From the IMG/VR virus record IMGVR_UViG_3300044796_000401: 64,000 bases of DNA; one strand, written 5' to 3'. The notes beneath the pieces were generated by a model, which saw only the letters and a program-made list of their open reading frames with translations, ran no database searches and was not told where the DNA came from. The translations under genes were made by a program, and so were the position numbers. Shown in pieces: positions 12,581 through 56,673 of the stretch. Each line of letters opens with the position of its first letter. Position 1 is the stretch's first letter. The DNA comes from a virus. Lineage: Duplodnaviria; Caudoviricetes.

Positions 12581-13354
12581 TTACGACTGCGGAATCTCCG
12601 TTTCTTTCGGGGCTTCCGGCTGGCCGGACTTGTCCCGGTCGGTGACCCAAGCGTCGGACCCGCCGCCTGCCGCCACGCGGGGAACATCTACTTGTTCTGG
12701 GACTTTGGGACTTCCGGTCTCGTCCCGGTCGGTGACCCAAGCATCGGAAGCACCGCCCGCAGCTTCTTTCTCTTCGACTTCTTCCTTCTCTTCGAACGGT
12801 TCATCGCCTTCCGCCTTTTCGAAAATCTCGACTTCGGGGGCCTCGCCTTCGGCGTCGACTTCCTCGACGATGTCATCGGCGACGTTCTCTTCCTTGACTT
12901 CATCCTTAAGATCGGTATAATCCTCAACAATGCCTTCGGCCTCAGCGGGCGCGGTTTCGAGGCTGACGCCCATCTGCTCGGCCGCGAACTCGATGTCTTG
13001 GGCGATGTCGTTCAACCCTTGATACGCTTCAACCAAGGCCTCTTCCAGCTTCTCCGGGCTCTCCTCGGCGATCTGGCGGAACTTCTTGCCGTATTCCTTG
13101 GCGGCGGCGACCCGTATCTTCAGCGGGGCTTCCCTGGCTGCACGAACCAAGCCGAGGTTCTCGCGGAGGTTCTCGATGCCTTCCGCATGGCTGGCGTACT
13201 TGTCGGCGAGCCGGATCAGGTGCTTCTCCAGCTTCTCGGGGGCCTTTGCGGCGACCGTGCGCATCTTGGCATATTTCCTGATTTTTTCGGTCTTGCGTTC
13301 GGCTTTGCGGGCCGCGATCTTTGCCCGAAGCTGCTTAGGTGATTGCTTTGCCAT
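12581..13354 (-). CDS. Acidic head-associated protein with two TDRD peptide repeats
   Basis: Start MAKQSPK (ATG 13354); basic N-terminus, PEKLE helical repeat, Glu-rich stretch, then two SDAWVTDRD repeats. Confidence 0.7.
   Translation of the reverse strand: MAKQSPKQLRAKIAARKAERKTEKIRKYAKMRTVAAKAPEKLEKHLIRLADKYASHAEGIENLRENLGLVRAAREAPLKIRVAAAKEYGKKFRQIAEESPEKLEEALVEAYQGLNDIAQDIEFAAEQMGVSLETAPAEAEGIVEDYTDLKDEVKEENVADDIVEEVDAEGEAPEVEIFEKAEGDEPFEEKEEVEEKEAAGGASDAWVTDRDETGSPKVPEQVDVPRVAAGGGSDAWVTDRDKSGQPEAPKETEIPQS
12632..12742. repeat. 21-nt direct repeat with 90-nt period (coding)
   Basis: GTCCCGGTCGGTGACCCAAGC at 12632-12652 and 12722-12742. Confidence 0.9.
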
Positions 13355-13445
13355 GATTATACCCTCTGTTTTAAGACTGCTATAGTTAAGAAACGACTTC
13401 GCACTCAAGTATTTTGAATACAGTCCCCATCTGTAGGGATTCAAA

Positions 13446-13931
13446 ATGAACAAACACAAACCGTGTCCTGATTGTGGAGACGACATCCCAGAAAACTTTC
13501 ATCAAGGTGCACACTACTGTAAGCCCTGTATCAGTAAACGCAGCAAAAATTGGCGGGCGAAAAACATAGGTCGTATTCGCGAAACCCATAGATTGCAGGC
13601 CCAGCGCTGGCGAAAGGATAATACTCATAGATACCGAAAATCCGATTCGGATAGAAGACAAAGAATGCGGCAAACATGCATCGTCAAACTTGGTGGAAAA
13701 TGCGTATGGCCCGAAGGCTGTTATTGGACTGACCCGAGAGCTTTGCAGATCGATCACGTACACGGGGGCGGTACCTCAGAGCGCAAACAACTAAATAGTG
13801 CCGTCGCTTTCTACAAAAAAGTTCTCGCGGATACTGACGGCAACTATCAGCTATTGTGCGCTTGCCACAATGCCATCAAGAAAATCATAAACCACGAATA
13901 CCATGCCAAAAATACCCAAGGGCACCTTTAA
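13446..13931 (+). CDS. HNH endonuclease with N-terminal zinc ribbon
   Basis: CPDC..CKPC, LGGKC..C, LQIDHVHGGG and YQLLCACHNAIK motifs. Confidence 0.8.
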   Translation: MNKHKPCPDCGDDIPENFHQGAHYCKPCISKRSKNWRAKNIGRIRETHRLQAQRWRKDNTHRYRKSDSDRRQRMRQTCIVKLGGKCVWPEGCYWTDPRALQIDHVHGGGTSERKQLNSAVAFYKKVLADTDGNYQLLCACHNAIKKIINHEYHAKNTQGHL

Positions 13932-16900
13932 CGATACTTTGTTCGTACAGACTCAAAAAACCCCTTCTTATCCGCAAAAATACCGTCCTCGTCGCTGCTC
14001 TTAAGCCGGGCGGAAGTTTTCATGGTCGTGTTCTCGGGCAGCCCGACTTGGCACGAGCCGTCGCCAACTTCCTTCATCATCAAGTCGCCGTTCGTAAAGC
14101 TCCAAACCGCCCCGCACTGACCGCACATCGCAAACCACAGATCGTCGGACGGTGCATCGCCGGGGTCCAATTCGCCGGATGACATGGGGACAACAGCCCG
14201 ATGTCCGCGGAGCTTGGTGTTGACTAGCTGTGTCAACTCCGCCGGGGGCTCCTCGTAATCAACGGGTTCATCGCTGCTCATGTGGAAATTCGGATTGGCA
14301 AGCTCGGGCAGGATCGTCTTCCTCATCGGCGCGTCTTCGCCCCGGCCGGATTGCGGGGTGATCGCGACCGCGGGCTGGCTCGGCTGGGCGGGGACAGCAG
14401 GCTGGGGCTGTTGCGCCTCGGGCTGCACGCCCTGCGACCGCTGGACGTTTTTCACCAGCATTTGCTGCGGGGTGACGGGACCAGCGCCGACTCGGTTTCG
14501 ATTGGCCCATTCGCCGGGCTTCCAGTCCCTCTTCGCCGGGTCGGGCTCGGCCTTGCGGATTTCTTCGAGAACCCCGTCGATCTTTTGCAGGTGCACGTGG
14601 ATTTCCTGCACGCTGCGCGCAAGGTACTTGTCGTCGGTGACGAAGCCCTCCAGCATCCGCTTGCCTTTTTCCAGCCACCTGTGAAACGCCGCCACGAAAT
14701 CCTCCGGCCGTGCGGCGGTCTTCGGCAGCCTGCTCGCGACTTCCGGTCCGTGCATCGAGCGGCCCTTGGCATTGAGCAGGTCCTCGATCTCCATCGCCAA
14801 GGGGTTGTTCATGCCTTCCCCGGTATCCGGCGTGCCTTCTTGCAGGCTGTGGGCGGCCTGCTCAAGCAGGTCGAGCAGCGTGCTTTCGAAATCGCCGTCC
14901 GCGCCCGTTTTGCGCGCTTTGGCTGGATCGTCTCCTTTCCTGACAATCTCGTTGTCGCCATAGGTAATATACGTTGCTGGCTCGCCGAGCCCGAAAACGA
15001 AATCCTGCAACTTCTGTTTCGCCTCTTCCACGGAACCGCACGGCCCGACTTGCGTGCCGAGGTTCAGTTCGTTGGAAGCGCCGTAGTCCGTCCATTCCCA
15101 CGTGCCTTCCCAGCCGTCGAGCTCCAGATGGCGGCTGTCGTACATCCCGCTCCATTCGATGCGGACTTGGGCTTCGAGGTCCGGCGTCGAAGCGCCTTCC
15201 TTGCGGGCGTGCGGCAGGCGTCCGGTGTCGCCCGGCGTGATCTGCGGGCGGATGCCGTCGTAGAAATCGTGCCCGATCCCGGCTTCCTTCTCGCCGTACT
15301 GCTTTTCCCAGTCCTCGTCGGACAGTTCGTCGGGCTTGCGCCACTCGATATGATTGCCGGTGATATCCTCGTACGCCTTCGCCGTTTCTTCCCATTGCTC
15401 GGACGTGACCATGGGTGGCTGCACGCGATGCGTGTCCAGCAAGTTGGCCAACGCTATCGATATGGAAGGAATGGGCTCGTCGCCGCTGGCGTAGTCGAAC
15501 GCATCCTGCAAAATCTTCCAGTCCTGCGCCGTGAGCATGCCATCCCCGCGGGCTTCGAGGAGATTAGCCGTGGCTTCGAGCAATTCCTTGTTCCCAAGTC
15601 CAAGTCCCGCTTTCTTTGCCTTGATACCCATGCTTTTCAACATATCCTTGTCCTCTTCGGAATAGCCCTCGGTCTTCGGTTCCTCCGGCTCCGCATAGAT
15701 CGTGCGCAGCTTTTTGAGGTCGTATTTGGAGAGGTATTTCTTCATCTCGTCCAAGGTCGTGCCCTCGGCGACAGTGGGCTCCCTGTTGGCAGCCATGTCC
15801 TTTTGGGACGCCTTCCACCCGTCGCTGTAAAGCCGCATGGCGAAGAGCGGGTACCTCTCGGGATACCACGGGTTCCTTCCCTTCCAGCCCAGCGAATCCA
15901 TGTAGTCGCGCATCCTGTCGAATTCTTCCCTTTGCGCTTCCCGCTCCTCTTCCTCGCGGCCGGGATGCAGGCTCTCATAGTCGGCGTCTTCCGAGCCTTC
16001 CTTCCGGGTATCCAATCCCAGGGGTCCAAGGACGCACTTGGCCGGGCGGCAGGCAAGCATCCAGTGTTCCTCGGTTGCGCCGGGCAATGTCTCGTTCCAA
16101 ATGGCGACGACTTCGCGCCCGGCAGCAGTCAAACTTTTAGCATACCCTTCGGCTTCTTCGGCGTCGCGCAAGAACGTCACGTCAAGCTGCTGTTTCTTGG
16201 CTTCGTTGAGCGTCATGGCTTTCTCTGCTTGGGCGGCACCGAGTTTTCCTGCCCTTGCCATCCCTTTGTTCATGCGCCATGCTTCGCTGCGTTCGACGCC
16301 CTCCATGTGGGGACCGCCGTTCTTGCATGGGCGGAGGTTGCATTGGGTGCATTCGAGGCACCGGGGGCAAACAAGGTGTTCCACGTCCGCCAAGCAATAT
16401 TGGCAATACTCTTTCCCCGGAACGGCTTCCTCGTATCCGCACGCGCTGCACATCGCCGCTTCATTGGGCGGGAGGACGTTCTCGCCGAACTCCGCGGTTT
16501 TCGTGTAGCGCTCGCGACATCCGTTGCAAACCTTGGTGTCCCCGATCTTCCCGCACGTTTCGCATTTCAGCTTGCCTTCCGGAGGTTCTTCGGGAGCGTC
16601 GTCGTCTTCGCTGCCTGTCAATGAACGGGCACCCGGCGCGAGCACCGGATTCGCCAGGATGCCGGGCTCGAAGTGCCCCGGAAGCAAGCGCCCGGCGTTC
16701 GTGAAATAGAAAGCCTTGTCCCCGAGCCAATCGGCGTCGGTCTGGAGCGGGATCGTCGGGTGGTCGTGCCCCTCGGACGATTCCGTGTTGACGTACGGCC
16801 TGTTGATGTCGCACTTGTCGCAATGGTAGATCGAAGTACGGCGCGGGTTGTCCGATGTCCAGCGGTGGACGAAGGCGTCCTTCACCTGCCGGAGCATCTC

Positions 16901-18091
16901 GGGGGTCAAGTTGGTCCCGTGGATAAGCTGCTTGGCGATTTTTGCGGAAGCCGTGCGTCCCGACGCCGGTTCGGGTTGCTCTTCGGCCGCGAGATTCAGC
17001 GATGCCAGCGACGCCTTGACCTTCGGCCGACGGCGGCGGAGCTTCTCCCTCTCGTGGTGGATGTTGTCGATCAGCTTCACGAAGATGTCGTCTTCGCCCA
17101 GGGTGCGGCGGTTCTCCTGGATGTACTGCTCAAGCAGCTTCGCGAGGCGGCCGATGTATTCGTAGAGCGAGGCGTTGCTCAATCGCGTTCTTTCCTTCCA
17201 CAGCGGTTCGAGGTGGCGGCGCGCTGGCATGTAGCCGGGGCGTCCCGTCCCCTCGTTCGGCGACTCCGTGGACTCGGACACCCACTCCCAGTAGATGTCG
17301 AACAGGGTGATGAACCACTTGGCGGACGTTTCGCTCTGGTGCTTCTTCAGCCACCCGTAGAAGCCGTCGCGGAATTCGCGGATGTCGTGCTCCGACTGGC
17401 GGATATCTCTCGGGATACCGTCGTAGAGTTTCGGCTGGGTAGCATGCTCTTTGGTGTCGAGGATGTTTAACTCCTCGCCCTCATCCCCCAGCTGCCACAT
17501 GCTGATCTCCTTCGGCTGCCGCTCGTTGATCCAGCCACGGATCATTTTTTTGCCCCAACTGAAAGTATCAATAAGGAACTGCGTAAGTTGCTGCGCCAGT
17601 TCCTTTTCCTTGTGTGGAAAACTCTCCTTGTTGCGCACGCCCTCGAATTGCTCCAGCACGCGGCGTTGTCCCAAATACGTGAATAGCATCTCATGAATGA
17701 GTTCGTCCTTCTCCGACGGATCAATGTTCCCTGGGAGTTTTTGCGCTACTTGCTTCTCTAAGAAACCCGCCCAATCATAGGGCTTGCCATCGGTTCCAAC
17801 CGGATAGGGGAGTTGTTGCTTGGAATGTTGCTGGTTAAATTGGTCTATGTATCCGAGGATATAGAGGTTGAAGTCCTTGTTGTAGGCGAGGTGGAATCTG
17901 ATCAGGCTTGCGAACTGGGCAAAGGCGGGGCTTACCGGAACTACCTCGGAGACCGGTCGGCCTTGCATGTCGGCGAAGCGAACGACAGTGCCATCGGAAT
18001 CGGCGACTTTGGATGCGACTCTGTAATGAACGCCGCTGATGTCGGTGACGACTTGCCCCGGCTCGTAGGAACTAAGCTTGTTGTTGGGCAT
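13928..18091 (-). CDS. Giant multidomain K-x-A-linked polyprotein (sigma-like domain, zinc fingers, small phage domains)
   Basis: About 1390 aa from MPNNKL (track start 18190). Mosaic of short unrelated domains bounded by RTAS/KIAK, KTAE, KKAG, KEAG, RKTGA and KTAA linkers. Confidence 0.75.
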   Translation of the reverse strand: MPNNKLSSYEPGQVVTDISGVHYRVASKVADSDGTVVRFADMQGRPVSEVVPVSPAFAQFASLIRFHLAYNKDFNLYILGYIDQFNQQHSKQQLPYPVGTDGKPYDWAGFLEKQVAQKLPGNIDPSEKDELIHEMLFTYLGQRRVLEQFEGVRNKESFPHKEKELAQQLTQFLIDTFSWGKKMIRGWINERQPKEISMWQLGDEGEELNILDTKEHATQPKLYDGIPRDIRQSEHDIREFRDGFYGWLKKHQSETSAKWFITLFDIYWEWVSESTESPNEGTGRPGYMPARRHLEPLWKERTRLSNASLYEYIGRLAKLLEQYIQENRRTLGEDDIFVKLIDNIHHEREKLRRRRPKVKASLASLNLAAEEQPEPASGRTASAKIAKQLIHGTNLTPEMLRQVKDAFVHRWTSDNPRRTSIYHCDKCDINRPYVNTESSEGHDHPTIPLQTDADWLGDKAFYFTNAGRLLPGHFEPGILANPVLAPGARSLTGSEDDDAPEEPPEGKLKCETCGKIGDTKVCNGCRERYTKTAEFGENVLPPNEAAMCSACGYEEAVPGKEYCQYCLADVEHLVCPRCLECTQCNLRPCKNGGPHMEGVERSEAWRMNKGMARAGKLGAAQAEKAMTLNEAKKQQLDVTFLRDAEEAEGYAKSLTAAGREVVAIWNETLPGATEEHWMLACRPAKCVLGPLGLDTRKEGSEDADYESLHPGREEEEREAQREEFDRMRDYMDSLGWKGRNPWYPERYPLFAMRLYSDGWKASQKDMAANREPTVAEGTTLDEMKKYLSKYDLKKLRTIYAEPEEPKTEGYSEEDKDMLKSMGIKAKKAGLGLGNKELLEATANLLEARGDGMLTAQDWKILQDAFDYASGDEPIPSISIALANLLDTHRVQPPMVTSEQWEETAKAYEDITGNHIEWRKPDELSDEDWEKQYGEKEAGIGHDFYDGIRPQITPGDTGRLPHARKEGASTPDLEAQVRIEWSGMYDSRHLELDGWEGTWEWTDYGASNELNLGTQVGPCGSVEEAKQKLQDFVFGLGEPATYITYGDNEIVRKGDDPAKARKTGADGDFESTLLDLLEQAAHSLQEGTPDTGEGMNNPLAMEIEDLLNAKGRSMHGPEVASRLPKTAARPEDFVAAFHRWLEKGKRMLEGFVTDDKYLARSVQEIHVHLQKIDGVLEEIRKAEPDPAKRDWKPGEWANRNRVGAGPVTPQQMLVKNVQRSQGVQPEAQQPQPAVPAQPSQPAVAITPQSGRGEDAPMRKTILPELANPNFHMSSDEPVDYEEPPAELTQLVNTKLRGHRAVVPMSSGELDPGDAPSDDLWFAMCGQCGAVWSFTNGDLMMKEVGDGSCQVGLPENTTMKTSARLKSSDEDGIFADKKGFFESVRTKYR

Positions 18092-19058: not shown

Positions 19059-19063
19059 GCTAT

Positions 19064-19978
19064 TTACCCCGCATACTCGAATTGCCTTCCGAAAAACTTG
19101 TATCCTTTCCCGATTGAACGCGAAAGGTTTGATCCGTACCCACCGAATTTTTCAACCGCATGAAGCAGGGACGGAAACACTTCTCCAGTATCAATGCAGC
19201 GGACGGACTTGCCGGGTTTCGGGGAGATCGTCAATGCTCGTTGTACTCCGTCGCTTATGTTTTTTCGTTGCTGTTCAGAATGCTTCTTACCTAAATGATG
19301 CTTTGTATTCCGCATCTGCAATGCCCATATTTTCCGGCGTTCGGGAGTCCACCATTCCTTGTGGCTTTGGGTTTGTTTCGCACGATACACCGGGTCAGCC
19401 CAAAACTTTTTGGAATGTCCGGATTTCCACTGTTTCCAAGCTTCGGACGCTTTACGGCCTTTTCTACCCCGAAGAGCGAGGGAAATTTTGGATTTCCATG
19501 ACAAAGAAAGAGGAGGTCTTTTATTTCCTAGTTTGGAAAGACGAATATTTTCTTTCCTCTCGGCACTAAAGATTGCCTTCTTTCCCAACTCGGATAACAA
19601 AGCTCTTGTTTCCGGAGAAGCTTTCTTACCAAGATGCGCGTTTCGATTTTTTAGTTTAGAAGCTTCAGAATGTTTGAATCCGTACATGCCGTCGCCGCCC
19701 TCGGTCATGTTGTATCCCTTCTTGGGATCGTTGGATTGATGCAAGGCAATGTGGAGTTTTTCCTTTTCGGAAAGCTCCTCAACAGTTTTAGCTCGGTCAA
19801 TTATTTCAATTCGGAAAGCATCTGGCCCGTATTTGCGGATGGCTCTGTGAAAATAACACGGACTTCCCATCTTGGCGGAATACTTATGATTCCGCCAACG
19901 CTGATCAACAGTTGGATGACTCCACTTGCCGATATAGACCTTGCTGTTGACCGTATTTGTCACACGGTAAATCAGCAT
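19064..19978 (-). CDS. GIY-YIG homing endonuclease with NUMOD3 repeats and NUMOD1 tail
   Basis: LIYRVTNTVNSKVYIG, GYNMTEGGDG, HSEAS/HSEQ and CIDTGEVFPS motifs. Confidence 0.9.
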   Translation of the reverse strand: MLIYRVTNTVNSKVYIGKWSHPTVDQRWRNHKYSAKMGSPCYFHRAIRKYGPDAFRIEIIDRAKTVEELSEKEKLHIALHQSNDPKKGYNMTEGGDGMYGFKHSEASKLKNRNAHLGKKASPETRALLSELGKKAIFSAERKENIRLSKLGNKRPPLSLSWKSKISLALRGRKGRKASEAWKQWKSGHSKKFWADPVYRAKQTQSHKEWWTPERRKIWALQMRNTKHHLGKKHSEQQRKNISDGVQRALTISPKPGKSVRCIDTGEVFPSLLHAVEKFGGYGSNLSRSIGKGYKFFGRQFEYAG

Positions 19979-20024
19979 AACTTCCTCCAGAGATTCAAGG
20001 GCTAAAGTGTTGAAACTAAGGCAC

Positions 20025-20258
20025 TTAATCTTTCAAAGGGTCGTTAGGGTCATGATCAGTTGATCCGTCTTCGGCCAGCACGGACTTGAGTACCGAAAGA
20101 TACTCGCTGTGATCCGCGAAGGCTTGGGGGTCAAGCGTGCGCCCGGCCTCGCTCTCTTGCACCTTGTCGGCGATCTTGCGGCCAGCGAGGCGGGCGAACT
20201 CGACGCCGTAAAGCGAGTTCATTGCATCGTTGTCGATTTTTGCGATCTTCTTACTCAT
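20025..20258 (-). CDS. Small acidic protein with KIA motifs
   Basis: MSKKIAKID...GRKIADKV; AGGAG upstream of ATG 20258. Confidence 0.6.
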   Translation of the reverse strand: MSKKIAKIDNDAMNSLYGVEFARLAGRKIADKVQESEAGRTLDPQAFADHSEYLSVLKSVLAEDGSTDHDPNDPLKD

Positions 20259-20344: not shown

Positions 20345-21922
20345 TTAGGCCCCGTAAATGGAGTATTTTCCGATCAGGGCCGCTGGCGGCACCGTCGAAG
20401 TCATGGCATCCTTGAAGGGCGGGTCCGGGATGTGGTAGGTGGCTTGTATGACCCCCTGCAAGTCGAACGCGCTGTAGCTGAACATCAGGTACCTGTTGTT
20501 GACGGGATCGAACGAGAACGAGACGATGTCGAGCAGGTCGCCGTCCACGTAGATTTGCATGTCGCGCCGGGGATCGAACGCCCCGAGGGCGGAAGACGTA
20601 TACGGCCCAGCGAGGGGCGAACAGTACAGCGCCAGCCTGCCGGGAAACGGGGCGTTGGTCCACAAGCCGGAAAGCGGCGTCACCACTTGCACCACGCTAC
20701 CGCTGCTTGACGCAAAAAGCCCTTGGGGGACGTAAATTGCCACGATGGCACGGGTTCCGGTATTCAGGCTGCTCGTGGTGTACTGGACGCTTCCCGCCGT
20801 GAGCGGCAAGCCCATGATGATGGGGACTGGGGGACTGATCCCGTCCAAGATAGCAATCGTTCCCGTAGCGGGTATGGGAGGCGAAGTCCCCGCCACACTA
20901 ATCGTAAAAGTGACCGGATCGGTAAACACGGATGGGTTCGTACTGCTTGTGACCGTGGTCATGGTCGGCTGCATGTAAGTGTACCCGTTCACCAATGTGC
21001 CGAACTGCGAATCGGGATTCGCGACGACGATATTCACCGCGCCAATGGCGTGCGCCGGGGTCACGCAGGTCAACTGCGTGGGGTTCACGAACACCACGCT
21101 CGTCGCGGACACGCCGCCGAAAGTAACCGTGCAGCCGCTTGCGAAGTCCGTGCCGAACAGGTTCGTGATCGCGGTTCCCCCGGCAATCGGGCCGCTGTTT
21201 GGCGTGCAGCCCGCGACGATCGGGGCGGGCGCAATAACGTAGTTAACTATATGCGAGAACTCCCCGGCTATGATCCATGCATTGTCAGGATTGCCGACGC
21301 CCTGAATCGTGACGACAAGGGCTGCGTTGCCCGTCGCCCCGATGCAAGCCCACAAGCTGGTTTGCCCTCCAGCGTCGTAAGTTGGGTCCCTCTCGACGAC
21401 ATCGGCAAGGTTGACGTAGATATTATTAGCATTGTCCGTGACCGTAATGCCGGAAAAAGGCGGATAAGTGTGGACGCCGTCCCAGCCGTTGTTGGAAGTT
21501 ATGTTGACGACAATCGTGTTTCCTGTTGTGGTCGGAGCCGGGAAAGTAACCGTGGCATCCAGCGGGATGGCCGGAAAGTTTGGATATGCAGGCTGTGCGA
21601 GGGGGGTTGCTTGGATGAGCCCCGGAGCATTGCCGTCCGTCTTGAAAAGGGCCAGGGCAAGCGCCAGAGGAAGAGACCCCGCCGAGTCCATGTTGGCTGT
21701 ATAGGTGGCCGCGCCCGAAGGCACGGATTGGAATACGAAGATTCCGGCTCCCGATTGCGCTCCTATGGCTGTCCAACCGGCCACCGGAGTGTAGAATGAT
21801 GCGGAGGTGCCGCCCGAAACGATGGCGAACTCCGGGTAGCCCGAAGGCGTGGCGGAAATCGCGGGATTCAGCGGGGGAACCATGACCGCCAACGTTGCGA
21901 CTTTGTCCGCCGTGCTGCCCAT
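20345..21922 (-). CDS. Ig-fold virion protein (IPT/TIG and Big_3-like domains)
   Basis: PNSGPIAGGTAIT..GTDF..G.TVTFGG...V.VNPTQLTCVTPAH (IPT/TIG); TTVTSSTNPSVFTDPVTFT...TGT..ILDG (Big_3). Confidence 0.8.
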   Translation of the reverse strand: MGSTADKVATLAVMVPPLNPAISATPSGYPEFAIVSGGTSASFYTPVAGWTAIGAQSGAGIFVFQSVPSGAATYTANMDSAGSLPLALALALFKTDGNAPGLIQATPLAQPAYPNFPAIPLDATVTFPAPTTTGNTIVVNITSNNGWDGVHTYPPFSGITVTDNANNIYVNLADVVERDPTYDAGGQTSLWACIGATGNAALVVTIQGVGNPDNAWIIAGEFSHIVNYVIAPAPIVAGCTPNSGPIAGGTAITNLFGTDFASGCTVTFGGVSATSVVFVNPTQLTCVTPAHAIGAVNIVVANPDSQFGTLVNGYTYMQPTMTTVTSSTNPSVFTDPVTFTISVAGTSPPIPATGTIAILDGISPPVPIIMGLPLTAGSVQYTTSSLNTGTRAIVAIYVPQGLFASSSGSVVQVVTPLSGLWTNAPFPGRLALYCSPLAGPYTSSALGAFDPRRDMQIYVDGDLLDIVSFSFDPVNNRYLMFSYSAFDLQGVIQATYHIPDPPFKDAMTSTVPPAALIGKYSIYGA

Positions 21923-23496: not shown

Positions 23497-24233
23497 TAAG
23501 ACACCCGTCCCAGTTGCCAGCCCTGCTCTATATAGGCATTCAAAAGACTGGTGGGCACCATCATTGTCTCAGTTTCGCGATGAATCCACCTTTTTCCGTA
23601 GCTGGGGTTGCTTTCTCCTGATAAAGCCTTGCTCAAGTTTTGACAGTGAATCTCAGAGAACTCCAGCCCTTTATGCGCCTCGCTCAACTTGTGTCGATGC
23701 TCTTCTGAAAGTACCTTGCCTTGATGTGCATATCTGATTTTTTCGCGATGTTCTGCGGAAAGTTTCTTGCCTCGTTGGGCTTCCCCTATCTTACGTCGAG
23801 TCTCTTCACTACGTGGCTTGCCCCAATGGGGACTATTTGATCCTCGTTTCGAATCTCCGATGTGCCTGCAATGTTCCTCAGAAAGCTTTTTTCCAAGGCG
23901 AACTTCGCTCATTCTACGACGCGTTTCTTCAGTCACAAGAGACGCACCCTCACCGCCAAGCGTCATATTGTAGCCTTTTTCTGGTTCATGGGATTGGTGC
24001 GAAAGGATGAAATGAGTCTCCATTTTCGCCAATTCATCAACGTCCTTAGCGTGATAGATCACCTCTCGTGTGAACGCTTTGGGACCGTACTTACGAATGG
24101 CGCGGGCGAAATGGAATTGACCGCCTTGGTTAGCAGCGTTGCGATGCCATTTCCATCGTTTGGATAGCGAGGTCGTTGTCTTCCCGATATAGACTTTGCC
24201 GTTTATTTTGTTGGTGATCTTATAAATCAGCAC
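23496..24233 (-). CDS. GIY-YIG homing endonuclease with NUMOD3 repeats
   Basis: LIYKITNKINGKVYIGKT, GYNMTLGGEG and repeated SEEHR/SEETR motifs. Confidence 0.9.
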   Translation of the reverse strand: MLIYKITNKINGKVYIGKTTTSLSKRWKWHRNAANQGGQFHFARAIRKYGPKAFTREVIYHAKDVDELAKMETHFILSHQSHEPEKGYNMTLGGEGASLVTEETRRRMSEVRLGKKLSEEHCRHIGDSKRGSNSPHWGKPRSEETRRKIGEAQRGKKLSAEHREKIRYAHQGKVLSEEHRHKLSEAHKGLEFSEIHCQNLSKALSGESNPSYGKRWIHRETETMMVPTSLLNAYIEQGWQLGRVS

Positions 24234-28431: not shown

Positions 28432-28611
28432 ATTGGTTGGTTTCTCCAGTTAAAGTTGAAACTTGAACGTTTAATTTGCCCCTCCAATCCGGCCTCTTTT
28501 GGGAGAGGGTAGGACTATAGAAGAACACGTTCAATGAAGGATTGAGAAAAATCATTTTTCTCAAAACTAACGATTTTGTCGTTTTGGCACTTTTTGGGGT
28601 ATTATATAGAT

Positions 28612-47843: not shown

Positions 47844-49739
47844 TTAACGATAATTAGGAATAAATTGAGCAGCACCTAATGCTTTTAATCGTGACGCCAT
47901 CTGTAATTTTCCCTGGAAGCCGGGGTTCGACGGGGTATTGGTGATCTCGTACCGCACGAGGCGGGTGATCAGTGGCACGTACACCTTCCAGTCGGCGGAC
48001 GCCGTGACGCCCACCGTGTAGATGTAGCTCGGGGCGGTGGCGCTCGGGTCGCGTGCCGCGCCTTGGAAATCGCGGGTGGCCTCGAAGACCGTCAATCCGT
48101 CCGCCTCGCAGTTCTCCCGCCCGAGGATCAGAAGCTGCTGCTTGAGCATCTCGCTCAGGTCGGAGGAGGTCTGGAGGTCGTTGGACTTGACCTCCAGCGT
48201 GAAACTGATGTTCTCCTTGGAGCCGAATACCTCGTAAGTCTCCGTCAGCGTTGGGCTTACTACAATGGCCGCCTGGTCCCCGACGATGACTTGGTCCCCG
48301 ACGGCCAAAACGAGCCCCGGCAGGAAGTACCGCTGCTGCCCGTTGGCGAGCAGGGGGCTGCCCGCGGAGACCTGAACCGATGCTGGCTGGGGCTCCCCCT
48401 GTGCGGCCGGGGGCTGCTTGAACTGGATTGTGTTGGGATCGACGACAATCAGGCTGTTGAGTTCCCATTTCTTGGCGCTGGCTTTGACTTGAGGAGTTTC
48501 GATCCGGACTTCCCAATGGCAGTATTCCCCCGGCTGGAGAAGCTGGGACAGGATGATGGTCCCGTCGGACTCCGCCGTCAGGCCGGTAAAATCCCCCGCC
48601 GTCGTGTGGATGAAGGCTTGGCCGGGAGCCAATATCTCGTCCGGCTGGAGCCCAATCCGGAGGATGTTCTCGGGGTTGGTACCCGATGTCACCATGGGGT
48701 TGAGCTTCGTCACAGCGTTGCAGTACAGGACGGAACCGCTGGGCGACCATGCGGCAAGCTGGATGAAATTGCTGCCGTACATCGTGTAGTCGAGGTTCGG
48801 GCGCAGCACGTAGCCGTCCTGGTCCGTAATGGTGAACCCGAGATTCGCCGGGATGCTGACCAGTTCGGAACCGCCGAGGGTCTTCTGGCAAATCGTCACG
48901 GTCTGCTGGCGCTCGTACCAATAGTCCGCGAGGGGTACGAGGGTTTGCCCGGCAAGGGGGTTTGGAATGTCGGGGGACAATGCCGCATAGGGAATCCAGA
49001 CCGTATCCGGCCCCGGCAACTGCCCGACGTTTGAAATAGCCGCTTTCCATACGGTGGCGGCATAGGTCACCGTGGCACCGGTCGCATAGGTGATGTCGGG
49101 ATTCCAAACGGGGGCGAACAAGCTGTTCGTCCATGTGCAAACAAGCTTGTTGACCGGGGTGAGCAGGTTGGCAAACGCGCCGTTTGTCTGGTTGAATCCC
49201 GCAAACTGCACCGGATTTCCCGTTTCCAAATCGGACATGGAAAGCAGCGTCACATCGATGCCAGGACGGAAGAACACCTGCGAGCCCGCGGCGTTCACGA
49301 TCTTTCCTTCTTCCCACCTGAAGTACTGGCAGGTGAGCCCGATATCGTTGGTCTGCTCGTTGAAGTAATCGACGTTCAAGTAGTACACGCCAGCGGCGGG
49401 CGTCCGGCGGGTCTTGTCGGTCTCGCGCACCCATTCGACAAGCTGGCCGGGCTTGTCCCGCACCTTCGCCAGGATGGCGCGCCCCTGCTGCGTACAGAGA
49501 AAATAGTCAAAGGAGAGACGCGTGCCTGCGGTTGTTACGTTTCTAATTATGACTTGCGTGTCGTTCCATTTTATGTGCGTGTTCGAGGGAAACGTCACGG
49601 TCCCGAGCGTGTTCTTGAACCGGGGATTTTTTTCTACAATATCCCTCACGATTCTAATGATATACGCAACGAGATTTGCCCCAGTCAAGTCTAAAATGTT
49701 AGTACCAAAGGATTTACTCCTTCGCCTCCCCTTGTCCAT
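47844..49739 (-). CDS. Tail-completion/terminator-like structural protein with inserted CBM5/12-like module
   Basis: PVWNPDITYATGATVTYAATVWKA...PG...W is a chitin-binding-like module; C-terminal FTLEV..DL..S..L..M tail-terminator-like fold; immediately upstream of the sheath. Start uncertain (possibly TTG ~49688). Confidence 0.55.
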   Translation of the reverse strand: MDKGRRRSKSFGTNILDLTGANLVAYIIRIVRDIVEKNPRFKNTLGTVTFPSNTHIKWNDTQVIIRNVTTAGTRLSFDYFLCTQQGRAILAKVRDKPGQLVEWVRETDKTRRTPAAGVYYLNVDYFNEQTNDIGLTCQYFRWEEGKIVNAAGSQVFFRPGIDVTLLSMSDLETGNPVQFAGFNQTNGAFANLLTPVNKLVCTWTNSLFAPVWNPDITYATGATVTYAATVWKAAISNVGQLPGPDTVWIPYAALSPDIPNPLAGQTLVPLADYWYERQQTVTICQKTLGGSELVSIPANLGFTITDQDGYVLRPNLDYTMYGSNFIQLAAWSPSGSVLYCNAVTKLNPMVTSGTNPENILRIGLQPDEILAPGQAFIHTTAGDFTGLTAESDGTIILSQLLQPGEYCHWEVRIETPQVKASAKKWELNSLIVVDPNTIQFKQPPAAQGEPQPASVQVSAGSPLLANGQQRYFLPGLVLAVGDQVIVGDQAAIVVSPTLTETYEVFGSKENISFTLEVKSNDLQTSSDLSEMLKQQLLILGRENCEADGLTVFEATRDFQGAARDPSATAPSYIYTVGVTASADWKVYVPLITRLVRYEITNTPSNPGFQGKLQMASRLKALGAAQFIPNYR

Positions 49740-50428
49740 CCTTTATGACTGTTTCGCCCACCGTGGAAAACTGAACTCATGTGGGATGCGGATAACCCAC
49801 GTCCCGCACAAAACCCTTTCAGATTTGTAATTGAAACTGTTTTGCCTTCAGGCGACCGCAATACGAAAGTTCTGGAGTTGGCCGCTTGAATTTTTCGACG
49901 AGTGGAGTCTGACAGATGCTTCCCAAAATTGGAATGGTCTTCTCCCCGCGCTCCCATCCGCTGACGTGATGCTAACGTATGTTTCTTGCCGAAGAAATGG
50001 TTATCTGCCCCCTGTGTATGCTCAGAAATTGCCTGCTTCGCTTCCTCAGATTGGTGCTTGCCGAACATCGGGTGCTTTATCCCGATTCGTGCCCGCATCA
50101 ACGCCTTCTGCTTTTCCGATTGATGGAATCCAAAATTGCTCTCACCGCCTAGCGTCAAGTTATAGCCCCGAGAAAGGTCGTTCGATTGATGCTCAGCAAT
50201 TGCTTGCATTTCTAGGGAATTTAATTCTTCATTGGTTGAAGCGGTTGCGAGCAACTCAATTTTGAAGGCTGCCGCCCCATATTTGCGAATAGCAGCGCTT
50301 AAGACTGGGCATCCTTTTCCCGTCTTTGCCATATACTTGTGGACAGTCCACCGACGACCGAGTGTCGTCACAGTTCTCCCGATATAAACCTTGCCGTTGA
50401 CCCGATTTGTGATCTTGTAGACGACCAT
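49691..50428 (-). CDS. GIY-YIG homing endonuclease with NUMOD3 repeats
   Basis: VVYKITNRVNGKVYIGRT, GYNLTLGG and HPMFGKHQSEE motifs. Confidence 0.9.
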   Translation of the reverse strand: MVVYKITNRVNGKVYIGRTVTTLGRRWTVHKYMAKTGKGCPVLSAAIRKYGAAAFKIELLATASTNEELNSLEMQAIAEHQSNDLSRGYNLTLGGESNFGFHQSEKQKALMRARIGIKHPMFGKHQSEEAKQAISEHTQGADNHFFGKKHTLASRQRMGARGEDHSNFGKHLSDSTRRKIQAANSRTFVLRSPEGKTVSITNLKGFCAGRGLSASHMSSVFHGGRNSHKGWTRGGEGVNPLVLTF

Positions 50429-50448
50429 TCCAAGCCCCTAATACTGCT

Positions 50449-50775
50449 TCAGATAGGCGATTTAACGCCATCGAGCAAATGCCTGATCGTCGCCGTGGAG
50501 TACGAATAATCGTTGTTGTGAAGGAAGGCCCGGAAGTCGAATTCGAAGGTCGGGTCCGAGGGCTTGTGCCCGTCTTCGAGGAAGAACTCCATGGTGTCCT
50601 TGGCGAACTGCATCTCCTCGGGATCGTCTGGCTGATCGTTTAAGTCCGTGTAATCGTGGGTTTCCAGCCATTCAAGAACGTCGGGATGCTGCGGGACTCC
50701 TCGTTCCCCGTCTTTGTCACCGAGGACGCTTTCCATCCATCTATCGAACGCATCGATGGGCTGATCGAGGCGCAT
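50449..50775 (-). CDS. Hypothetical acidic protein
   Basis: TAATG coupling at 50775. Confidence 0.6.
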   Translation of the reverse strand: MRLDQPIDAFDRWMESVLGDKDGERGVPQHPDVLEWLETHDYTDLNDQPDDPEEMQFAKDTMEFFLEDGHKPSDPTFEFDFRAFLHNNDYSYSTATIRHLLDGVKSPI

Positions 50776-51299
50776 TACCATCCACTGGGCACGTCCAAAG
50801 AGTGTCCTGCTTCGCCCTTGCTGAGTTCGTCCGGGCGGCCGTAGTTGGTCGGGCCATCCGTGATCTTGACGAGCAGAGCGCCATAGTCAACGCCCGGCGG
50901 AGGAGCGGGAACGTACTGCTGGATGGGTTCGATCCACTGCTCGATGGAGCGGCGAATGTCGTTTATGCCGACGCGCCCGCCGAGGCGCGGGTACCAGCGG
51001 TTCTCAATCTGAAGATACCCCTGCCACGGGTAGTCAAGAATGTTCCATTGGCTGCCGTCGCGGGCTTGGAAAGCAGCGCCGGGGATCATATAGGCGAAGA
51101 AAATCTCGTCACCCTGGAGCGGAGAAAGGGGATTGGGAAGCTGCATATTGCCGGGGTTGGGTTCGAATTGCACGAATGTTGAAATTCTTGAATCCGAGGC
51201 ATCTCCTACGAGTTTTTGTAGGTCTGGGTTGATGTTCACTTCGTCGGACTCATCCAGCACACGGGCCGTCTTTGCTAGGGTTTCAGCGTCAAATGCCAT
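50775..51299 (-). CDS. Hypothetical, probably structural protein with N-terminal KTA
   Basis: MAFDAETLAKTARV...; GAGAGG SD and promoter-like motif upstream. Confidence 0.65.
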   Translation of the reverse strand: MAFDAETLAKTARVLDESDEVNINPDLQKLVGDASDSRISTFVQFEPNPGNMQLPNPLSPLQGDEIFFAYMIPGAAFQARDGSQWNILDYPWQGYLQIENRWYPRLGGRVGINDIRRSIEQWIEPIQQYVPAPPPGVDYGALLVKITDGPTNYGRPDELSKGEAGHSLDVPSGW

Positions 51300-51341
51300 G
51301 AGGGTACCTCTCTTAAAAGGTTGCGGTAGACGCCTTTTTGG

Positions 51342-52171
51342 CTATATGTCCGAGCTTATGCACAGCTTGCAAGCTGAGTTACGGATTCCCCGGTTAGTGT
51401 GCCAACGGGTGTGAAGGCTTTTAGCGTGGCCTTCTGGTGTTTTTATTCTAGCTAAATGCCCACTTTCAACGTTTTTGCGCCCCTGAACTTTACCGCCTAA
51501 TGACCGCAACTGCGCCATACGTCCACTCTCAACCGCCTTACGCCCAGCCAATGCAGCGATCTTCGCCAGATGTCCACTCTCGACGTTTTTGCGCCCACCG
51601 ATCCTTCCGCCCTTTGCACAAGATTCCTTTGTACGAATACGGTAAATTTGCCCACTCTCAACCGCTTTGTCTCCCAACTTTTTGGCCCATCCGCTTTCGA
51701 CATTTTGCGACCGACTATCGGACCCCCTTTACGTCCGCCTCTAGCAGCAGCGCCCAGAGCAAAGATGCCCGTGCCGTTCTTTTTATTCTCAAGCCCGTAA
51801 AAACTAGAGACCTCAGCCTGATGCGCCCCGCCCCTTTCATAAACCTCGGCGTATAGCGGCAACTCGTCAACGGAAACTTGCGAAGCGTACTTCCTGAACT
51901 TGGTCATGAAGAAAAACACCCGCTGGAACGACTCGCATTGCGGGGCGCAAACCGCAAGCCAATAGTGCGCCCTGAAGTGATCAGCGGGCGAGACACGGAT
52001 TATGTTGTCGAAGTTCTTAGCGTACTCAGGGAACTCTTTCTTGGGAAGGATGCGATGTTTGTTGCCGTGTTTCGATGTGGGCAAAGACTCGACGAAGGCG
52101 AAGTACGGCGCAAAGTCCGTATCAGGGACTTTTTCAACCAAAGCCTTGCGCGATGTGTCGGAAATCAGCAT
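51342..52171 (-). pseudogene. HNH-type endonuclease with a -1 frameshift into G[RK]K[NA]VESG repeats
   Basis: ORF 52171-51497 (HRILP..EFPEY..DHFRAHYWL) continues in the frame of ORF 51677-51342. One extra A in the run at 51703-51706 restores GRK-NVESGWAKKLGDKAVESG. Confidence 0.7.
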
Positions 52172-52208
52172 CTACATTATATACTGAAAGTCCAATAGTT
52201 TCTTTGAT

Positions 52209-53504: not shown

Positions 53505-53508
53505 CGGG

Positions 53509-56500
53509 CTATTCCTTTAACAATGACGCCTTAAACGGAATTTTGGGCTTCGCATATGTATCTTGAAGTTCGTCTTCATGGGGCTTTCCAAGCATGCTAG
53601 TCTGTCGGGAATCAGAACGAGCCTTTTCCGTGGGCGTCTTCGGGAGTTTGGAAGTTAGGTCACGGACCATCACCGGAAATATCGCACCCGTAATCGGCAC
53701 CGGCTTGAATCCCTGCCCCTTGTACCAGCCGATCAAGTCGAAGCCTTCGCGCTGTTTCCCGGCGGTGTCAACCACAGCCACGACCGCCGTGGCTCCGAGC
53801 TTTTTGGCTTCGGCTATGAAATCATAGAGCAGTGCCTTGCCCAAGCCTTGTCCTCTTTTTTCCTCGCTGACCTCTATCCCCTCCAAGGTGCCGATCTTTT
53901 TGTGCTCCTTCAGCAGACGAGTGAGCTTTGCGATCCCGCGCGTTGCACCCGGCATGAGCATGGCGGCCCATTCACCCAGCTCATCTATCGGAATGACGTT
54001 CCCGTAGGCGTTGCTTTCGCCGTCCCCGACGAGGATATCCGTGTCGGCCTTCTTGCTGAATCCCGCTTGTTTCGATGCGGTCTTGCCCTCAGCCTTCAAT
54101 GCCTTCCGCGTGTTGAGCAGGGCTCTCGCCCGCGCGCCGTAGTTCCCGGCGTCGCTTCTAATTGTGGGCTCATACACGCCGTCGATCAGCCAGCCGCCAT
54201 CCTCGACCTTGTCGGGAGGAATGCCCATCCTCCGGATGAACGAGATATGCGTATTACGTTCCCAGTCGGGATCGGCGAATATCTGCCCGTCGCTCGTGCG
54301 GATGGCGGCGTATTGCCCTTTTTCGGGAATAAGCCCGGCTTCCGGTATCTCTTCGCCAAGGTCTGGAAATTGCTGCATCACTCTTCCCATGTCGGCCTTC
54401 TTGCCGAATCCCGCGACCTTGTCGATGCCGTACCGCTGCCCGAACTCTTCCACCCACTGCCGTACTCGGGGCTCGCACGAAGCCATGGACTCGGCATGCT
54501 CCGGATTCCCAAAGAATCCCTTGTCGTGGTAGAACGTCCCGGAGTCCCACAGGTCCGTCAGGTCGATAATGCGATCCGGCGTCTTGAGAAGCTGGTGATC
54601 GGCGTTGCCCCTGATCTGCCCGCCGAACAAAGCCTGGGCGAACAAGGAGGCGAACTTGCATGCGCCTTTTATGTCCATCGGCTCGCCCTCGCGCCCAAGT
54701 TCAAGGTGGCGCTCCGCCCATTTCTCCTTCAGGAAGTCCTTTGCACGGCCGACCCACTCGTCGGTCGCGGGATAGAGCTTGGCGGCTGTCTTGCCGAACA
54801 GCGGCTTGTCATCCGTGTCGCCCATGAACTTCGCCTCGAACTCATCAGGTAGCCACGGTCCCTTGATGGAGTACAAAGTGACGTTCAGTTCCTTTGCCAT
54901 TTCATCGGCGGAACGTTGGCCCCCGGCATCGAAAGTCTTGCCATCCTTCTTCACGAAGGCGTGGGTGATCTCATATGGAATCTCGTCGCTCCATTCTTCC
55001 CCGTAGTCCGCCGACAGAATGCATATCTCCCCGCCGTTCTTGCGGGCGAAATCCACCGCCCAGATGCCGCAGCCCTCGACCATGCAATAGTCCTCTTCGC
55101 TGGCCTTCTTCGCGGCCGAGAACTTGCCTTCCTGGAGTTTCTTCAAGTGCAGCTTGTACGCATTTTCTTTGCCCGTCAGGTTGTGGAATACGGGAAGGTT
55201 ATGCCAGTCTCTAACACCCTGCGGCGCTTCCGCATCGTAGTAGCGCCCTTCGAATTTGACGAAAGAGTGGGCGGGTTCATCGATGTTCTCCTCCACCCAA
55301 CTGCCGCCCACCTCGAAGTGCTCGGCACCCCTGACCAGCTTCACTAAGTCTTCGGCGAACTCCTGGCAATAGCCGTTGTTGATGCTGTAAGGCGTGTCAT
55401 CGTACTTTTTTATGAGTTCCTGGATGACCATGGCGATGTCGGTGCGTGTCGGGCTCGGAGGTGCGTAACCCTCCGAATACACGCTCGGGTCGAAAGCGCC
55501 CCAATTCACGGGATAGGGGATTCTTTGTCCTTCCTCGTTCGTGACATACTTGGGCGGTTTTTTCGCTGTTTTCTTTGGTTTGGGCTCTTTGAGCTTATCC
55601 CGTGTAGCCTTGCCACCCTCTACGAACCACGCAGCCGCATCGCTCCGATGGCGCAGGATATTAAGAATCTGATCGATGGCAGGATCATTGTCATCGGCGA
55701 CCTTGTTTACCGATGCCGTGCGGACCCAAAACTTTCCCTTTAAGTCACCAACATCCAACTGCTGCTTCTTGAAACCGAAACCACGAGCTAATTGATCGTA
55801 ATACATGTGGACTTTTTCGCCCTCGACCGCTTCATCCCTTGTCGCAATGGTCTCCGCGGTGTGGATCGCCACGTTCTTGATGCCGTGCCTGCGGGCAAGC
55901 TCAAGCAGGCTGGCGATGCCGTACTCCGCCCAGTTCTGGAACAAAGCGATGAGCTTGCGCTTGATCCCTTCCAAGCCTTCGAGGTCGTATCCTTCTTGCA
56001 GCATCCGCTGCTTCGCCTGCCGGAAGTTCTGGGCGGTGATGCCCTTCTCCGCCGCCATCCGCCGCACTTTGTCGTTGGCGAGATTCGCCATGAAATCCTC
56101 GAAGCTGTCCGCCTCGATAACGAGCTTCGCCTGCGAGACGGCGTTCACGAGGTCCGATTGAACTTCATCGACCAGCAGCCAGTCATCATCCACAAAGTCC
56201 ACGCGCAGCCGGCCCACGGTCTTCCGGGTCGCCGGGTGCCCGCTCATCTCGCTGGACTGCCCGACCATGTCCACCCACTTTGCGAGGACGGGGTCTTGGG
56301 CGAGGATGCGCGAGGCGTCGGCGCTCTGGTTGATCCTCAGCACAAGCTGTTCGGCGTCCCGGTAGGAGGTATCGGGGTCGCGGTACGTGGCGTGCTCAAG
56401 CTCGTAGCTCCGCTCCTGCGGCTTGAACTCGTCCATCCAGCGTTCCATGTCCTCGGTCGTTATGTGCGGGCGGTTCTGCCGCGCGTCCATCCACACCTTG

Positions 56501-56673
56501 GGGTACTTCTGCGCGAATTGTTGAAATCGGCGTTGGAAATCCTGCCACGAGAGCGACCGGATGCGGCTGTCTAGGTATTGCTGGTAGACCCAGCGCACCG
56601 CGTCGTATTCCTTGGCGACCGGGGCACTAAGCTCCTGAAGCTGGGGCACGTCGGCTTTCTTAAGAAGACTCAT
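53509..56673 (-). CDS. Giant K-x-A-linked effector polyprotein (EVQSD domain, three Cys-His-Asp domains, GNAT)
   Basis: MSLLKKAD...; DEVQSD domain; three C..H..D modules; VSEEKRGQGLGKALL..WYKGQGF GNAT. Linkers RTAS/KVAD, KKAS, KTAA, KVAG/KKAD and KTAS/KQAG/KKAD. Confidence 0.8.
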   Translation of the reverse strand: MSLLKKADVPQLQELSAPVAKEYDAVRWVYQQYLDSRIRSLSWQDFQRRFQQFAQKYPKVWMDARQNRPHITTEDMERWMDEFKPQERSYELEHATYRDPDTSYRDAEQLVLRINQSADASRILAQDPVLAKWVDMVGQSSEMSGHPATRKTVGRLRVDFVDDDWLLVDEVQSDLVNAVSQAKLVIEADSFEDFMANLANDKVRRMAAEKGITAQNFRQAKQRMLQEGYDLEGLEGIKRKLIALFQNWAEYGIASLLELARRHGIKNVAIHTAETIATRDEAVEGEKVHMYYDQLARGFGFKKQQLDVGDLKGKFWVRTASVNKVADDNDPAIDQILNILRHRSDAAAWFVEGGKATRDKLKEPKPKKTAKKPPKYVTNEEGQRIPYPVNWGAFDPSVYSEGYAPPSPTRTDIAMVIQELIKKYDDTPYSINNGYCQEFAEDLVKLVRGAEHFEVGGSWVEENIDEPAHSFVKFEGRYYDAEAPQGVRDWHNLPVFHNLTGKENAYKLHLKKLQEGKFSAAKKASEEDYCMVEGCGIWAVDFARKNGGEICILSADYGEEWSDEIPYEITHAFVKKDGKTFDAGGQRSADEMAKELNVTLYSIKGPWLPDEFEAKFMGDTDDKPLFGKTAAKLYPATDEWVGRAKDFLKEKWAERHLELGREGEPMDIKGACKFASLFAQALFGGQIRGNADHQLLKTPDRIIDLTDLWDSGTFYHDKGFFGNPEHAESMASCEPRVRQWVEEFGQRYGIDKVAGFGKKADMGRVMQQFPDLGEEIPEAGLIPEKGQYAAIRTSDGQIFADPDWERNTHISFIRRMGIPPDKVEDGGWLIDGVYEPTIRSDAGNYGARARALLNTRKALKAEGKTASKQAGFSKKADTDILVGDGESNAYGNVIPIDELGEWAAMLMPGATRGIAKLTRLLKEHKKIGTLEGIEVSEEKRGQGLGKALLYDFIAEAKKLGATAVVAVVDTAGKQREGFDLIGWYKGQGFKPVPITGAIFPVMVRDLTSKLPKTPTEKARSDSRQTSMLGKPHEDELQDTYAKPKIPFKASLLKE

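Follow-up and report, generated by a model that had tools for sequence, protein, structure and literature searches.

The 64,000 nucleotide stretch of viral DNA analysed here (IMG/VR record IMGVR_UViG_3300044796_000401, hereafter the window) represents the head and tail module of a huge phage from soil, a relative of phage G and Tunturi 5. A short motif, Lys-x-Ala (K-x-A), was found to recur in it between the modules of large proteins, behind the N-terminal leaders of head proteins and beside the core of the head maturation protease. It is considered probable that such large proteins are cargo polyproteins which the head protease matures, recognising the motif, with Ala at cleavage subsite P1. 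The motif is read as a head-protease site because its distribution matches that of the Glu-ending motifs of phages T4 and phiKZ/SPN3US, where cleavage has been proven. Four large proteins are concerned, labelled P1 to P4 (labels distinct from that of cleavage subsite P1):

13928-18091, minus strand: P1, a Cys-rich protein of 1387 amino acids.
34648-37824, minus strand: P2, a multi-module protein of 1058 amino acids.
40555-42231, minus strand: P3, an Ala/Pro/Lys-rich protein of 558 amino acids with S-A-K-K-A-D, S-K-K-A-D, A-K-K-K-A-A-D and N-K-Q-A-A.
53509-56673, minus strand: P4, a polyvalent protein of 1054 amino acids, with an 8-residue leader ending L-L-K-K-A, a module D1, four further modules and a C-terminal GNAT domain.

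P4 opens with M-S-L-L-K-K-A-D, a peptide which serves in relatives as an internal linker directly upstream of D1. This conserved module of 310 amino acids (residues 9-320, window 55714-56649) follows L-L-K-K-A-[DEG]-[VI]-P in most homologs with a visible D1 start, and it closes with F-W-[VA]-R-T-A-[SA] in all 13 sequences showing its end (P4 of the window and 12 homologs), beyond which the sequences are unrelated. Leader and linker are, as judged from these sequences, one element in the P4 family, so modules could be added, lost or exchanged at linkers. Homologs obtained in a search of 5.8 billion proteins cover around 30% of P4, namely D1 alone. Those sharing D1 were found to carry InPase (E=5.6e-32), RelA_SpoT (E=4.9e-13) and ART-PolyVal (E=5.9e-10) domains as well as GNAT and Tpt1-like ones, and because relatives carry InPase, RelA/SpoT, ART-PolyVal and GNAT domains, the P4 family is assigned to the polyvalent proteins of the Aravind type. 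Two or more unrelated effector domains are clear in the homologs P0135, P0136, P0127 and P0128; P4 of the window consists of GNAT (residues 924-990) and four to five modules without a family. GNAT was the sole family recognised when the six P4 modules were searched one by one against Pfam, and no InPase, RelA_SpoT or ART-PolyVal domain was detected in the protein itself with this database.

The related locus L081 does not have residues 327-630 and 761-876 of P4, and the junctions fall inside linkers, R-T-A-A-R-K-K-K-A-A-K being joined directly to the module at 632-751. The two linkers bounding the second absent block (54043-54072 and 54391-54420; core G-F-x-K-K-A-D) are identical at 25 of 26 bases. 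Loss of modules by recombination between linker repeats is suggested, as L081 is without the module between these near-identical linkers. Only two loci were returned by the search for loci based on P4. A splitting of P4 by the homing endonuclease upstream was considered and rejected, the extra modules of L081 and of a second relative, L082, having no counterpart in the window.

Six clusters of sites were recognised in P4 and compared with its AlphaFold2 (AF2) model, in which low values of the predicted local distance difference test (pLDDT) mark stretches of low confidence:

56650-56667, minus strand: leader site L-L-K-K-A-D, an internal linker in relatives.
55693-55722, minus strand: double site R-T-A-S-V-N-K-V-A-D at the end of D1, with low pLDDT starting at residue 321.
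55099-55116, minus strand: A-A-K-K-A-S, in a low-pLDDT stretch of the region (modules 327-630) missing from L081.
54781-54798, minus strand: F-G-K-T-A-A, in low-pLDDT linker 617-631, immediately before the confident domain 632-751.
54391-54420, minus strand: double site K-V-A-G-F-G-K-K-A-D, in low-pLDDT linker 752-783.
54043-54084, minus strand: triple site K-T-A-S-K-Q-A-G-F-S-K-K-A-D, in low-pLDDT linker 861-903, before GNAT.

The model is weak overall (mean pLDDT 55), with confident domains at residues 19-320, 632-751 and 784-860, and its low-confidence stretches (1-18, 321-416, 425-537, 617-631, 752-783 and 861-903) contain or abut all six clusters. Two K-x-A matches lying within confident helices have Trp or Phe at subsite P2 and, by the model, are probably not sites. 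D1 itself has an invariant His146-Pro147 and a D-E-V-Q-S-D-L block and is common to all P4-family proteins; no match to it was found in Pfam or PHROGs, and it may be a packaging anchor or a conserved enzyme.

The homologs of P2 range from 539 to 1952 amino acids, and its motif copies are also conserved: 10 of 13 homologs retain L-L-K-K-K-A (residues 9-14), and 11 of 12 retain G-G-K-R-A-A. A start of P2 at 37824 appears the likelier one; a TTG start at 38091, 267 nucleotides upstream of the ATG at 37824, would add a Cys/Phe-rich extension which is unlike any homolog and looks spurious. Nothing reliable was found for P1, P2 or P3 in Pfam or PHROGs, and P2 gave a weak nucleotidyltransferase match. 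In P3, K[KT]A occurs five times with 1.5 expected, and conservation could be followed in only four full-length homologs. The protein at the corresponding position in Tunturiibacter phage Tunturi_5, gp328, is annotated as a 'DNA ejection protein', a match judged by position. The original prediction had described P1 to P4 as strings of unrelated domains and had called for a check of domain swapping between linkers in relatives. Such variable architecture was indeed seen in the P4 and P2 families, the modules of which are gained, lost and swapped at linkers; for protein P1 the description was not borne out.

Enrichment of K-x-A, a pattern fixed beforehand, was assessed against shuffles within each protein. 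The motif occurs 41 times in P2, P3 and P4 together (26.3±4.6 expected, p=0.001), 19 times in a scaffold-like protein described below (10.7 expected, p=0.001) and 14 times in five small head proteins (7.7 expected, p=0.02). It is depleted in the 13 homing endonucleases of the window, which are Lys-rich (13 vs 21.6 expected), and its count in tail proteins is not significantly raised (13 vs 8.8 expected). Enrichment over shuffled sequences and nucleases was recovered for P2 to P4, the scaffold-like protein and the small head proteins, with protein P1 as the exception. Homology breakpoints identified by BLAST lie within 5 amino acids of K-x-A in 20% of cases in the P4 family (8% at random) and in 24% in the P2 family (12% at random; p<0.002), the breakpoint ends being drawn from related sequences and not independent. 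No excess of breakpoints was found near the control patterns E-x-A and K-x-L.

Around K-x-A in 41 family members, subsite P2 clearly favours Thr or Lys and subsite P1' favours Asp, Ser or Ala, and Leu or Ser is preferred at P4-P6. This gives a fuller motif, (S/L)-L-K-[KT]-A-[DSAG], which stays constant in relatives while its flanks vary. The motif is a short linear element conserved in position and is not composition noise. Leaders of 7-21 residues ending in K-x-A can be read from the sequences of P4, P2, the scaffold-like protein, the protease, three proteins of 77, 524 and 174 amino acids and the major capsid protein (MCP).

The protease to which recognition of the motif is attributed, and the features of its gene, are as follows:

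32901-33809, minus strand: head maturation protease, 302 amino acids, phrog_18299, with an assemblin/T4 gp21 fold.
33468-33470: catalytic residue His114.
33294-33296: catalytic residue Ser172 (L-S-M-G-C).
33786-33803: own site F-K-K-I-A-T.
33654-33686: own sites C-K-T-A-S-M-K-K-Q-A-D.
32970-32981: M-T-A-S, after the core.

The protein is 59% identical to gp331 of Tunturi_5 and 27% to gp19 of phage G, and relatives occur in cluster C mycobacteriophages. A sequence search of the PDB gave no match. The AF2 core (residues 51-250) has a pLDDT above 90, and it is the disordered ends which carry the sites. With VIA-align the top structure was T4 gp21 (5JBL, Z=10.5, 128 aligned residues, root-mean-square deviation 3.2), and the herpesvirus proteases (varicella-zoster virus, pseudorabies virus (PrV), herpes simplex virus and human cytomegalovirus) gave Z=7.4-10.3; Foldseek alone was weak (E-value 0.05). 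As modelled, this is a serine protease with the fold shared by T4 gp21 and herpesvirus assemblin. Among 84 diverse members of the family, His114 and Ser172 never vary, and the catalytic assignment is limited to these two; the Ser of LSMG had been named as the residue to mutate, and it is this invariant Ser172. Cys182, Cys185, Cys196 and His198 are also invariant in the 84 members and form an inserted cluster (residues 182-198, window 33219-33266) which resembles a zinc ribbon. Three homologs of 700-1300 amino acids (P0241, P0263 and P0276) have an intein-like insertion directly after L-L-T-H, followed by C-F-P-(A/G)-G-H. Modelling of the protease core in complex with a P4 linker of 50 residues scored 0.00, a result that counts neither for nor against cutting.

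Conservation of the motif in the protease extends far beyond close relatives. Two elements are fixed across 54 loci, F-K-K-x-A-N-A (residues 3-9) and, around residue 43, K-[TVS]-A-[SA]; the spacer that leads on to another K-x-(A)-A-D, immediately ahead of the core, is variable in length and sequence. An exhaustive search gave 975 cluster representatives for the family (~1000 clusters at 50% identity). The pre-core regions of 139 members with an intact N-terminus hold 297 copies of [KR]-x-A against 131±10 in shuffles, and 104 of the 139 have a site within the first nine residues (consensus M-A-F-x-[KR]-x-A-x-A). Directly behind the core stands a near-invariant [LF]-x-[KR]-[AV]-A-S, with K/R in 77 of 84 members, then A or V, Ala in 78 and Ser in 53; most family members continue from this site into an acidic, scaffold-like extension.

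The other head proteins that carry the motif are:

26632-27591, minus strand: MCP, 319 amino acids, phrog_2522 (E=1e-42), with L-L-K-T-A-G-G at residues 17-23 (27523-27543).
30130-32304, minus strand: scaffold-like protein, K/A/E-rich, 724 amino acids, between the protease and MCP genes, homolog of Tunturi_5 gp332, with K-K-K-R-A-D at 32254-32271, A-A-K-V-A-D-D at 31297-31317 and A-A-K-T-A-D-D at 30949-30969.
20025-20258, minus strand: 77-amino acid protein with M-S-K-K-I-A-K and G-R-K-I-A-D.
21922-23496, minus strand: 524-amino acid protein with a variable leader of 15-30 amino acids, then conserved K-[TV]-A-I-[ST]-L-P-E-L.
50775-51299, minus strand: 174-amino acid protein with A-K-T-A-R-V at residues 9-14, a weak site seen in the window sequence alone.

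The boundary and N-terminal peptides quoted in the original prediction are all present in minus-strand open reading frames (ORFs) at the places given for them, and its identification of the MCP and of the head maturation protease was confirmed; the scaffold of which it spoke is the 724-amino acid protein, for which such a role is inferred from position and composition only. Sites near the N-termini of the protease, the scaffold-like protein and the 77- and 524-amino acid proteins proved to be conserved, and that of the MCP is doubtful. In an alignment of 36 sequences (the window and 35 homologs), the three sites of the scaffold-like protein at residues 14, 332 and 448 are each retained by 86-100% of the members, and local identity of their flanks is 0.32-0.71. 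Both K-x-A sites of the 77-amino acid protein are kept in most of ~15 variants, in which neighbouring residues vary, and the motif of the 524-amino acid protein is also kept in Tunturi_5 gp336. The MCP is 71% identical to that of Tunturi_5 and 34% to gp27 of phage G and matches PDB 6WKK (E=1e-53); its K-[TS]-A is kept in Tunturi_5 and, behind a different leader, in the distant 194-kb phage L087. Tunturi_5 keeps the sites in MCP (L-L-K-S-A-A), protease and gp332, and its gp328 and gp321 hold many copies. Two contigs with distant proteases were used, L087 (194 kb) and L088 (3 kb), and two others were set aside as too short or as lacking DNA sequence. The protease of L087 belongs to the same family (45% identical in the representative search), and this phage has I-K-T-A-A-G in its MCP; its scaffold-like protein carries K-K-A-D-L at the start, and a protein of portal size carries Q-K-T-A-S-S.

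The mechanism proposed is that the protease would recognise (S/L)-L-K-[K/T/x]-A followed by D, S, A or G and cut after the Ala. Copies flanking the protease core would allow self-release, and the repeated copies in the scaffold-like protein would serve scaffold disposal. Further cuts would fall after the short N-terminal leaders of the small head proteins, possibly in the MCP, and between the modules of the large polyvalent proteins P4, P2 and probably P3. The polyvalent proteins would enter the prohead as single chains, then be cut into separate enzymes of 10-35 kDa and be delivered with the DNA. A broader proposal is put forward tentatively and is held to be somewhat less probable than its narrower counterpart: that a large, mostly uncultured family of capsid proteases, including those of phage G, Tunturi_5 and cluster C mycobacteriophages, shares a Lys/Arg-x-Ala|Ser specificity like that of assemblins, and that huge soil phages have turned it into plug-and-play cargo, in which modules flanked by L-L-K-x-A are carried into the prohead, excised, delivered and exchanged at linkers.

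Maturation of head and ejection proteins by a head protease is established for T4, phiKZ and SPN3US, and polyvalent proteins have also been described, so the term 'candidate new system' used in the original prediction was too strong. The likeness to T4 gp21 includes the protease fold, the use of one short motif in capsid protein gp23, scaffold gp22, the protease and the injected internal proteins (IPI-III, Alt), short N-terminal leaders ending in the motif and a scaffold with many sites. T4, however, cuts after Glu (L/I-x-E), whereas the site proposed here would have Ala at subsite P1 and Lys at P3, and T4 cargo is single-domain with one leader, unlike the module chains with internal sites which are read here from sequence. 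The phiKZ gp175 and SPN3US gp245 proteases likewise act in giant phages on many head proteins, ejected ones and the protease included, with several motif copies in some substrates. Their motif is S/A/G-x-E, and the cuts known for them nearly all take off N-terminal propeptides, which then exit the head, and do not separate enzyme modules; no sequence match between these proteases and that of the window was found in the searches run. The Glu-ending patterns (L/I-x-E or S/A/G-x-E) thus do not describe the present motif, which has Ala at the putative P1, and E-x-A is not enriched at breakpoints.

Herpesvirus assemblin (pUL26) shares the fold and also has Ala at P1 with a small P1' residue, as in the PrV sites Y-L-Q-A|T and V-Q-A|S, if the scissile bond is placed correctly here. 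Its release site lies directly after the core and before the scaffold part, as does K-A-A-S in the phage family. It differs in having an aliphatic residue at P3 in place of Lys/Arg; in addition, scaffold is a separate gene in the present clade, and herpesviruses do not process cargo polyproteins in this way. The polyvalent proteins (Iyer, Burroughs, Anand, de Souza and Aravind, 2017; PMC5512222) are large late-gene proteins which string together unrelated effector domains with fast turnover of architecture, and the signature domains were found in the P4 homologs. The genes of P1 to P4 lie interspersed with those of tail sheath, protease, MCP and other structural proteins, a late/virion context. 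Processing by an embedded zincin (MPTase) domain has been proposed for polyvalent proteins (PMC5512222), but the window proteins differ in having no such domain, a frequent though not obligatory feature, since no HExxH metallopeptidase motif was found in P1 to P4 or the scaffold-like protein; the self-processing route is therefore unavailable here. One relative, L082, has an H-E-L-C-H-H module. A linker motif common to head-protease substrates is not described in that paper, in which 'linker' is absent and 'prohead protease' occurs once. DarA and DdrB of phage P1 are similar as anti-defence proteins which are proteolytically processed and incorporated into the head, but they are separate proteins and not motif-delimited chains, with another processing enzyme and site, and no homology to them was detected.

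Among the other explanations, one regarded as unlikely is that K-x-A marks flexible linkers or recombination joints of polyvalent proteins injected intact, the motif persisting because cassettes carry the linker with them. It is in keeping with this that no cutting accompanies the transfer of polyvalent proteins such as the N4 virion RNA polymerase, ArdC and TraC1, that the shared bases of the two P4 linkers and the deletion between them in L081 make DNA-level recombination at linkers real, and that some junctions have no motif. A cassette-linker origin leaves unexplained, however, why the motif should follow the leaders of unrelated stand-alone head proteins, recur in the scaffold-like protein and stand on both sides of the protease core throughout a ~1000-member family, in which K-A-A-S has the placement of the herpes release site. 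Less probable again is a role of the motif chiefly as a capsid-targeting or docking signal that binds scaffold, the inner capsid face or the protease, with cleavage absent or secondary. Capsid-targeting sequences of T4 are short N-terminal leaders, and the hydrophobic L-L ahead of Lys, like the unvarying N-terminus of the MCP, would be in keeping with a binding element, but the tandem internal copies (two to three within 15 residues) and those of the scaffold and protease core fit substrate sites better. The T4 targeting leader moreover ends in a cleavage motif too, so targeting and cleavage can go together. Chance or composition in Lys- and Ala-rich proteins, or cutting by another enzyme of host or phage, is thought very improbable. 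The loose motif is short, its rank among gapped pairs (below) is not the highest and protein P1 is not enriched; against this, the position of the motif is conserved across divergent relatives, breakpoints are enriched near it and not near control patterns of similar residues, the Lys-rich homing endonucleases are depleted in it, and distant phages that have this protease family also have the motif.

Maturation of cargo polyproteins by the head protease remains the preferred explanation, and several findings count against it. Cleavage, the scissile bond, packaging and injection are all inferred here. The loose motif alone is weak, because K.A ranked only fifth of all 400 gapped residue pairs in an unbiased scan (z=2.7), and, within the window by itself, generic [KR]-x-A exceeds chance only modestly. 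A narrower pattern, K-[KT]-A-[DSAGN], occurs 10 times with 1.2 expected, a motif refined post hoc from the same data. The sequences used for the conservation tests are mutually related, so that their counts are not independent events. Protein P1 does not behave as a member of the system, with no K-x-A enrichment (7 vs 7.1 expected from shuffles), no excess of breakpoints near K-x-A in its family and poorly conserved sites, only V-R-F-A-D (residues 37-41) being kept in 7 of 7 homologs. The proposed coincidence of the motif with domain boundaries holds for module junctions of the P4 and P2 families, and fails at some junctions in relatives, including that of InPase to RelA/SpoT in P0135. According to the P4 model, the R-T-A that closes D1 may belong to the final strand of the fold. 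After the protease core, the window itself reads M-T-A-S, with Met in place of Lys. Cutting of the MCP at L-L-K-T-A is uncertain, because 80 relatives show no variation over its first 60 residues, an unusual finding for a leader that is discarded, and because phage G has E-T-E at the aligned position. No cleavage data were found in the multi-omics paper on phage G, and no proteomics in that on Tunturi_5.

In the literature searched, three points appear to be new, namely a Lys-x-Ala type of site for a phage head protease, its conservation across the family (including an assemblin-like release site) and the use of the motif as a universal joint of exchangeable cargo modules in linker-delimited polyproteins. 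If the cuts are real, they would define the specificity of a large uncharacterised family of phage proteases as nearer to assemblins than to T4 or phiKZ, which bears on how shared viral ancestry shaped capsid maturation, and would account for the release of separate enzymes from polyvalent proteins without a peptidase of their own. The leader-equals-linker rule would then predict genes for injected proteins in uncultured huge phages and serve the loading of foreign proteins into such capsids. As Tunturi_5 is cultured on Tunturiibacter and keeps the sites, the prediction is directly testable.

Nearly all genes of the window are located on the minus strand. No GenBank phage matched it at the DNA level (megablast, 20 kb), and its cultured relative is Tunturi_5 (309 kb, Acidobacteriota host). 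The window shares with Tunturi_5 and phage G the gene order protease, scaffold-like protein, decoration protein, MCP. IMG/VR contains at least 163 related loci, on contigs of up to 463 kb, and the relatives reach 240-460 kb. A protease (P0029) 75% identical to that of the window was also found on a contig of 894 kb, far above the 240-460 kb of other relatives, and may stem from a phage of very large size, from an integrated copy or from chimeric assembly.

PHROGs and Pfam identified, besides MCP, protease and tail sheath, around 12 homing endonucleases spread through the module. ORFs resembling such enzymes are unusually dense in it, and several are placed between essential head genes. Thirteen (3273 amino acids in total) were used in the counts above. 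Five were covered by the family scan, which gave the four endonuclease assignments shown and no other match; the remaining eight were sorted solely on their N-terminal motif (GIY-YIG-like or Cys-rich). The tail sheath is listed with them:

43127-46762: tail sheath (PHROGs/Pfam).
25275-26477: homing-endonuclease-like ORF, HNH with NUMOD3.
32312-32869 and 33799-34608: homing-endonuclease-like ORFs, HNH.
56681-57925: homing-endonuclease-like ORF, DUF7487 endonuclease.
13446-13931, 19064-19978, 23496-24233, 24273-24605, 28612-29523, 42677-43120, 49691-50428, 51497-52171 and 63100-63900: other homing-endonuclease-like ORFs.

The decoration-protein gene (27612-28163) was found without the N-terminal Y-Y-G-Q-N-D-S with which it is contiguous in relatives. 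No group I intron family of Rfam matched here. A short exon, M-S-L-K-L-T, lies around 250 nucleotides upstream in another frame (window 28164-28470), an arrangement consistent with an intron.

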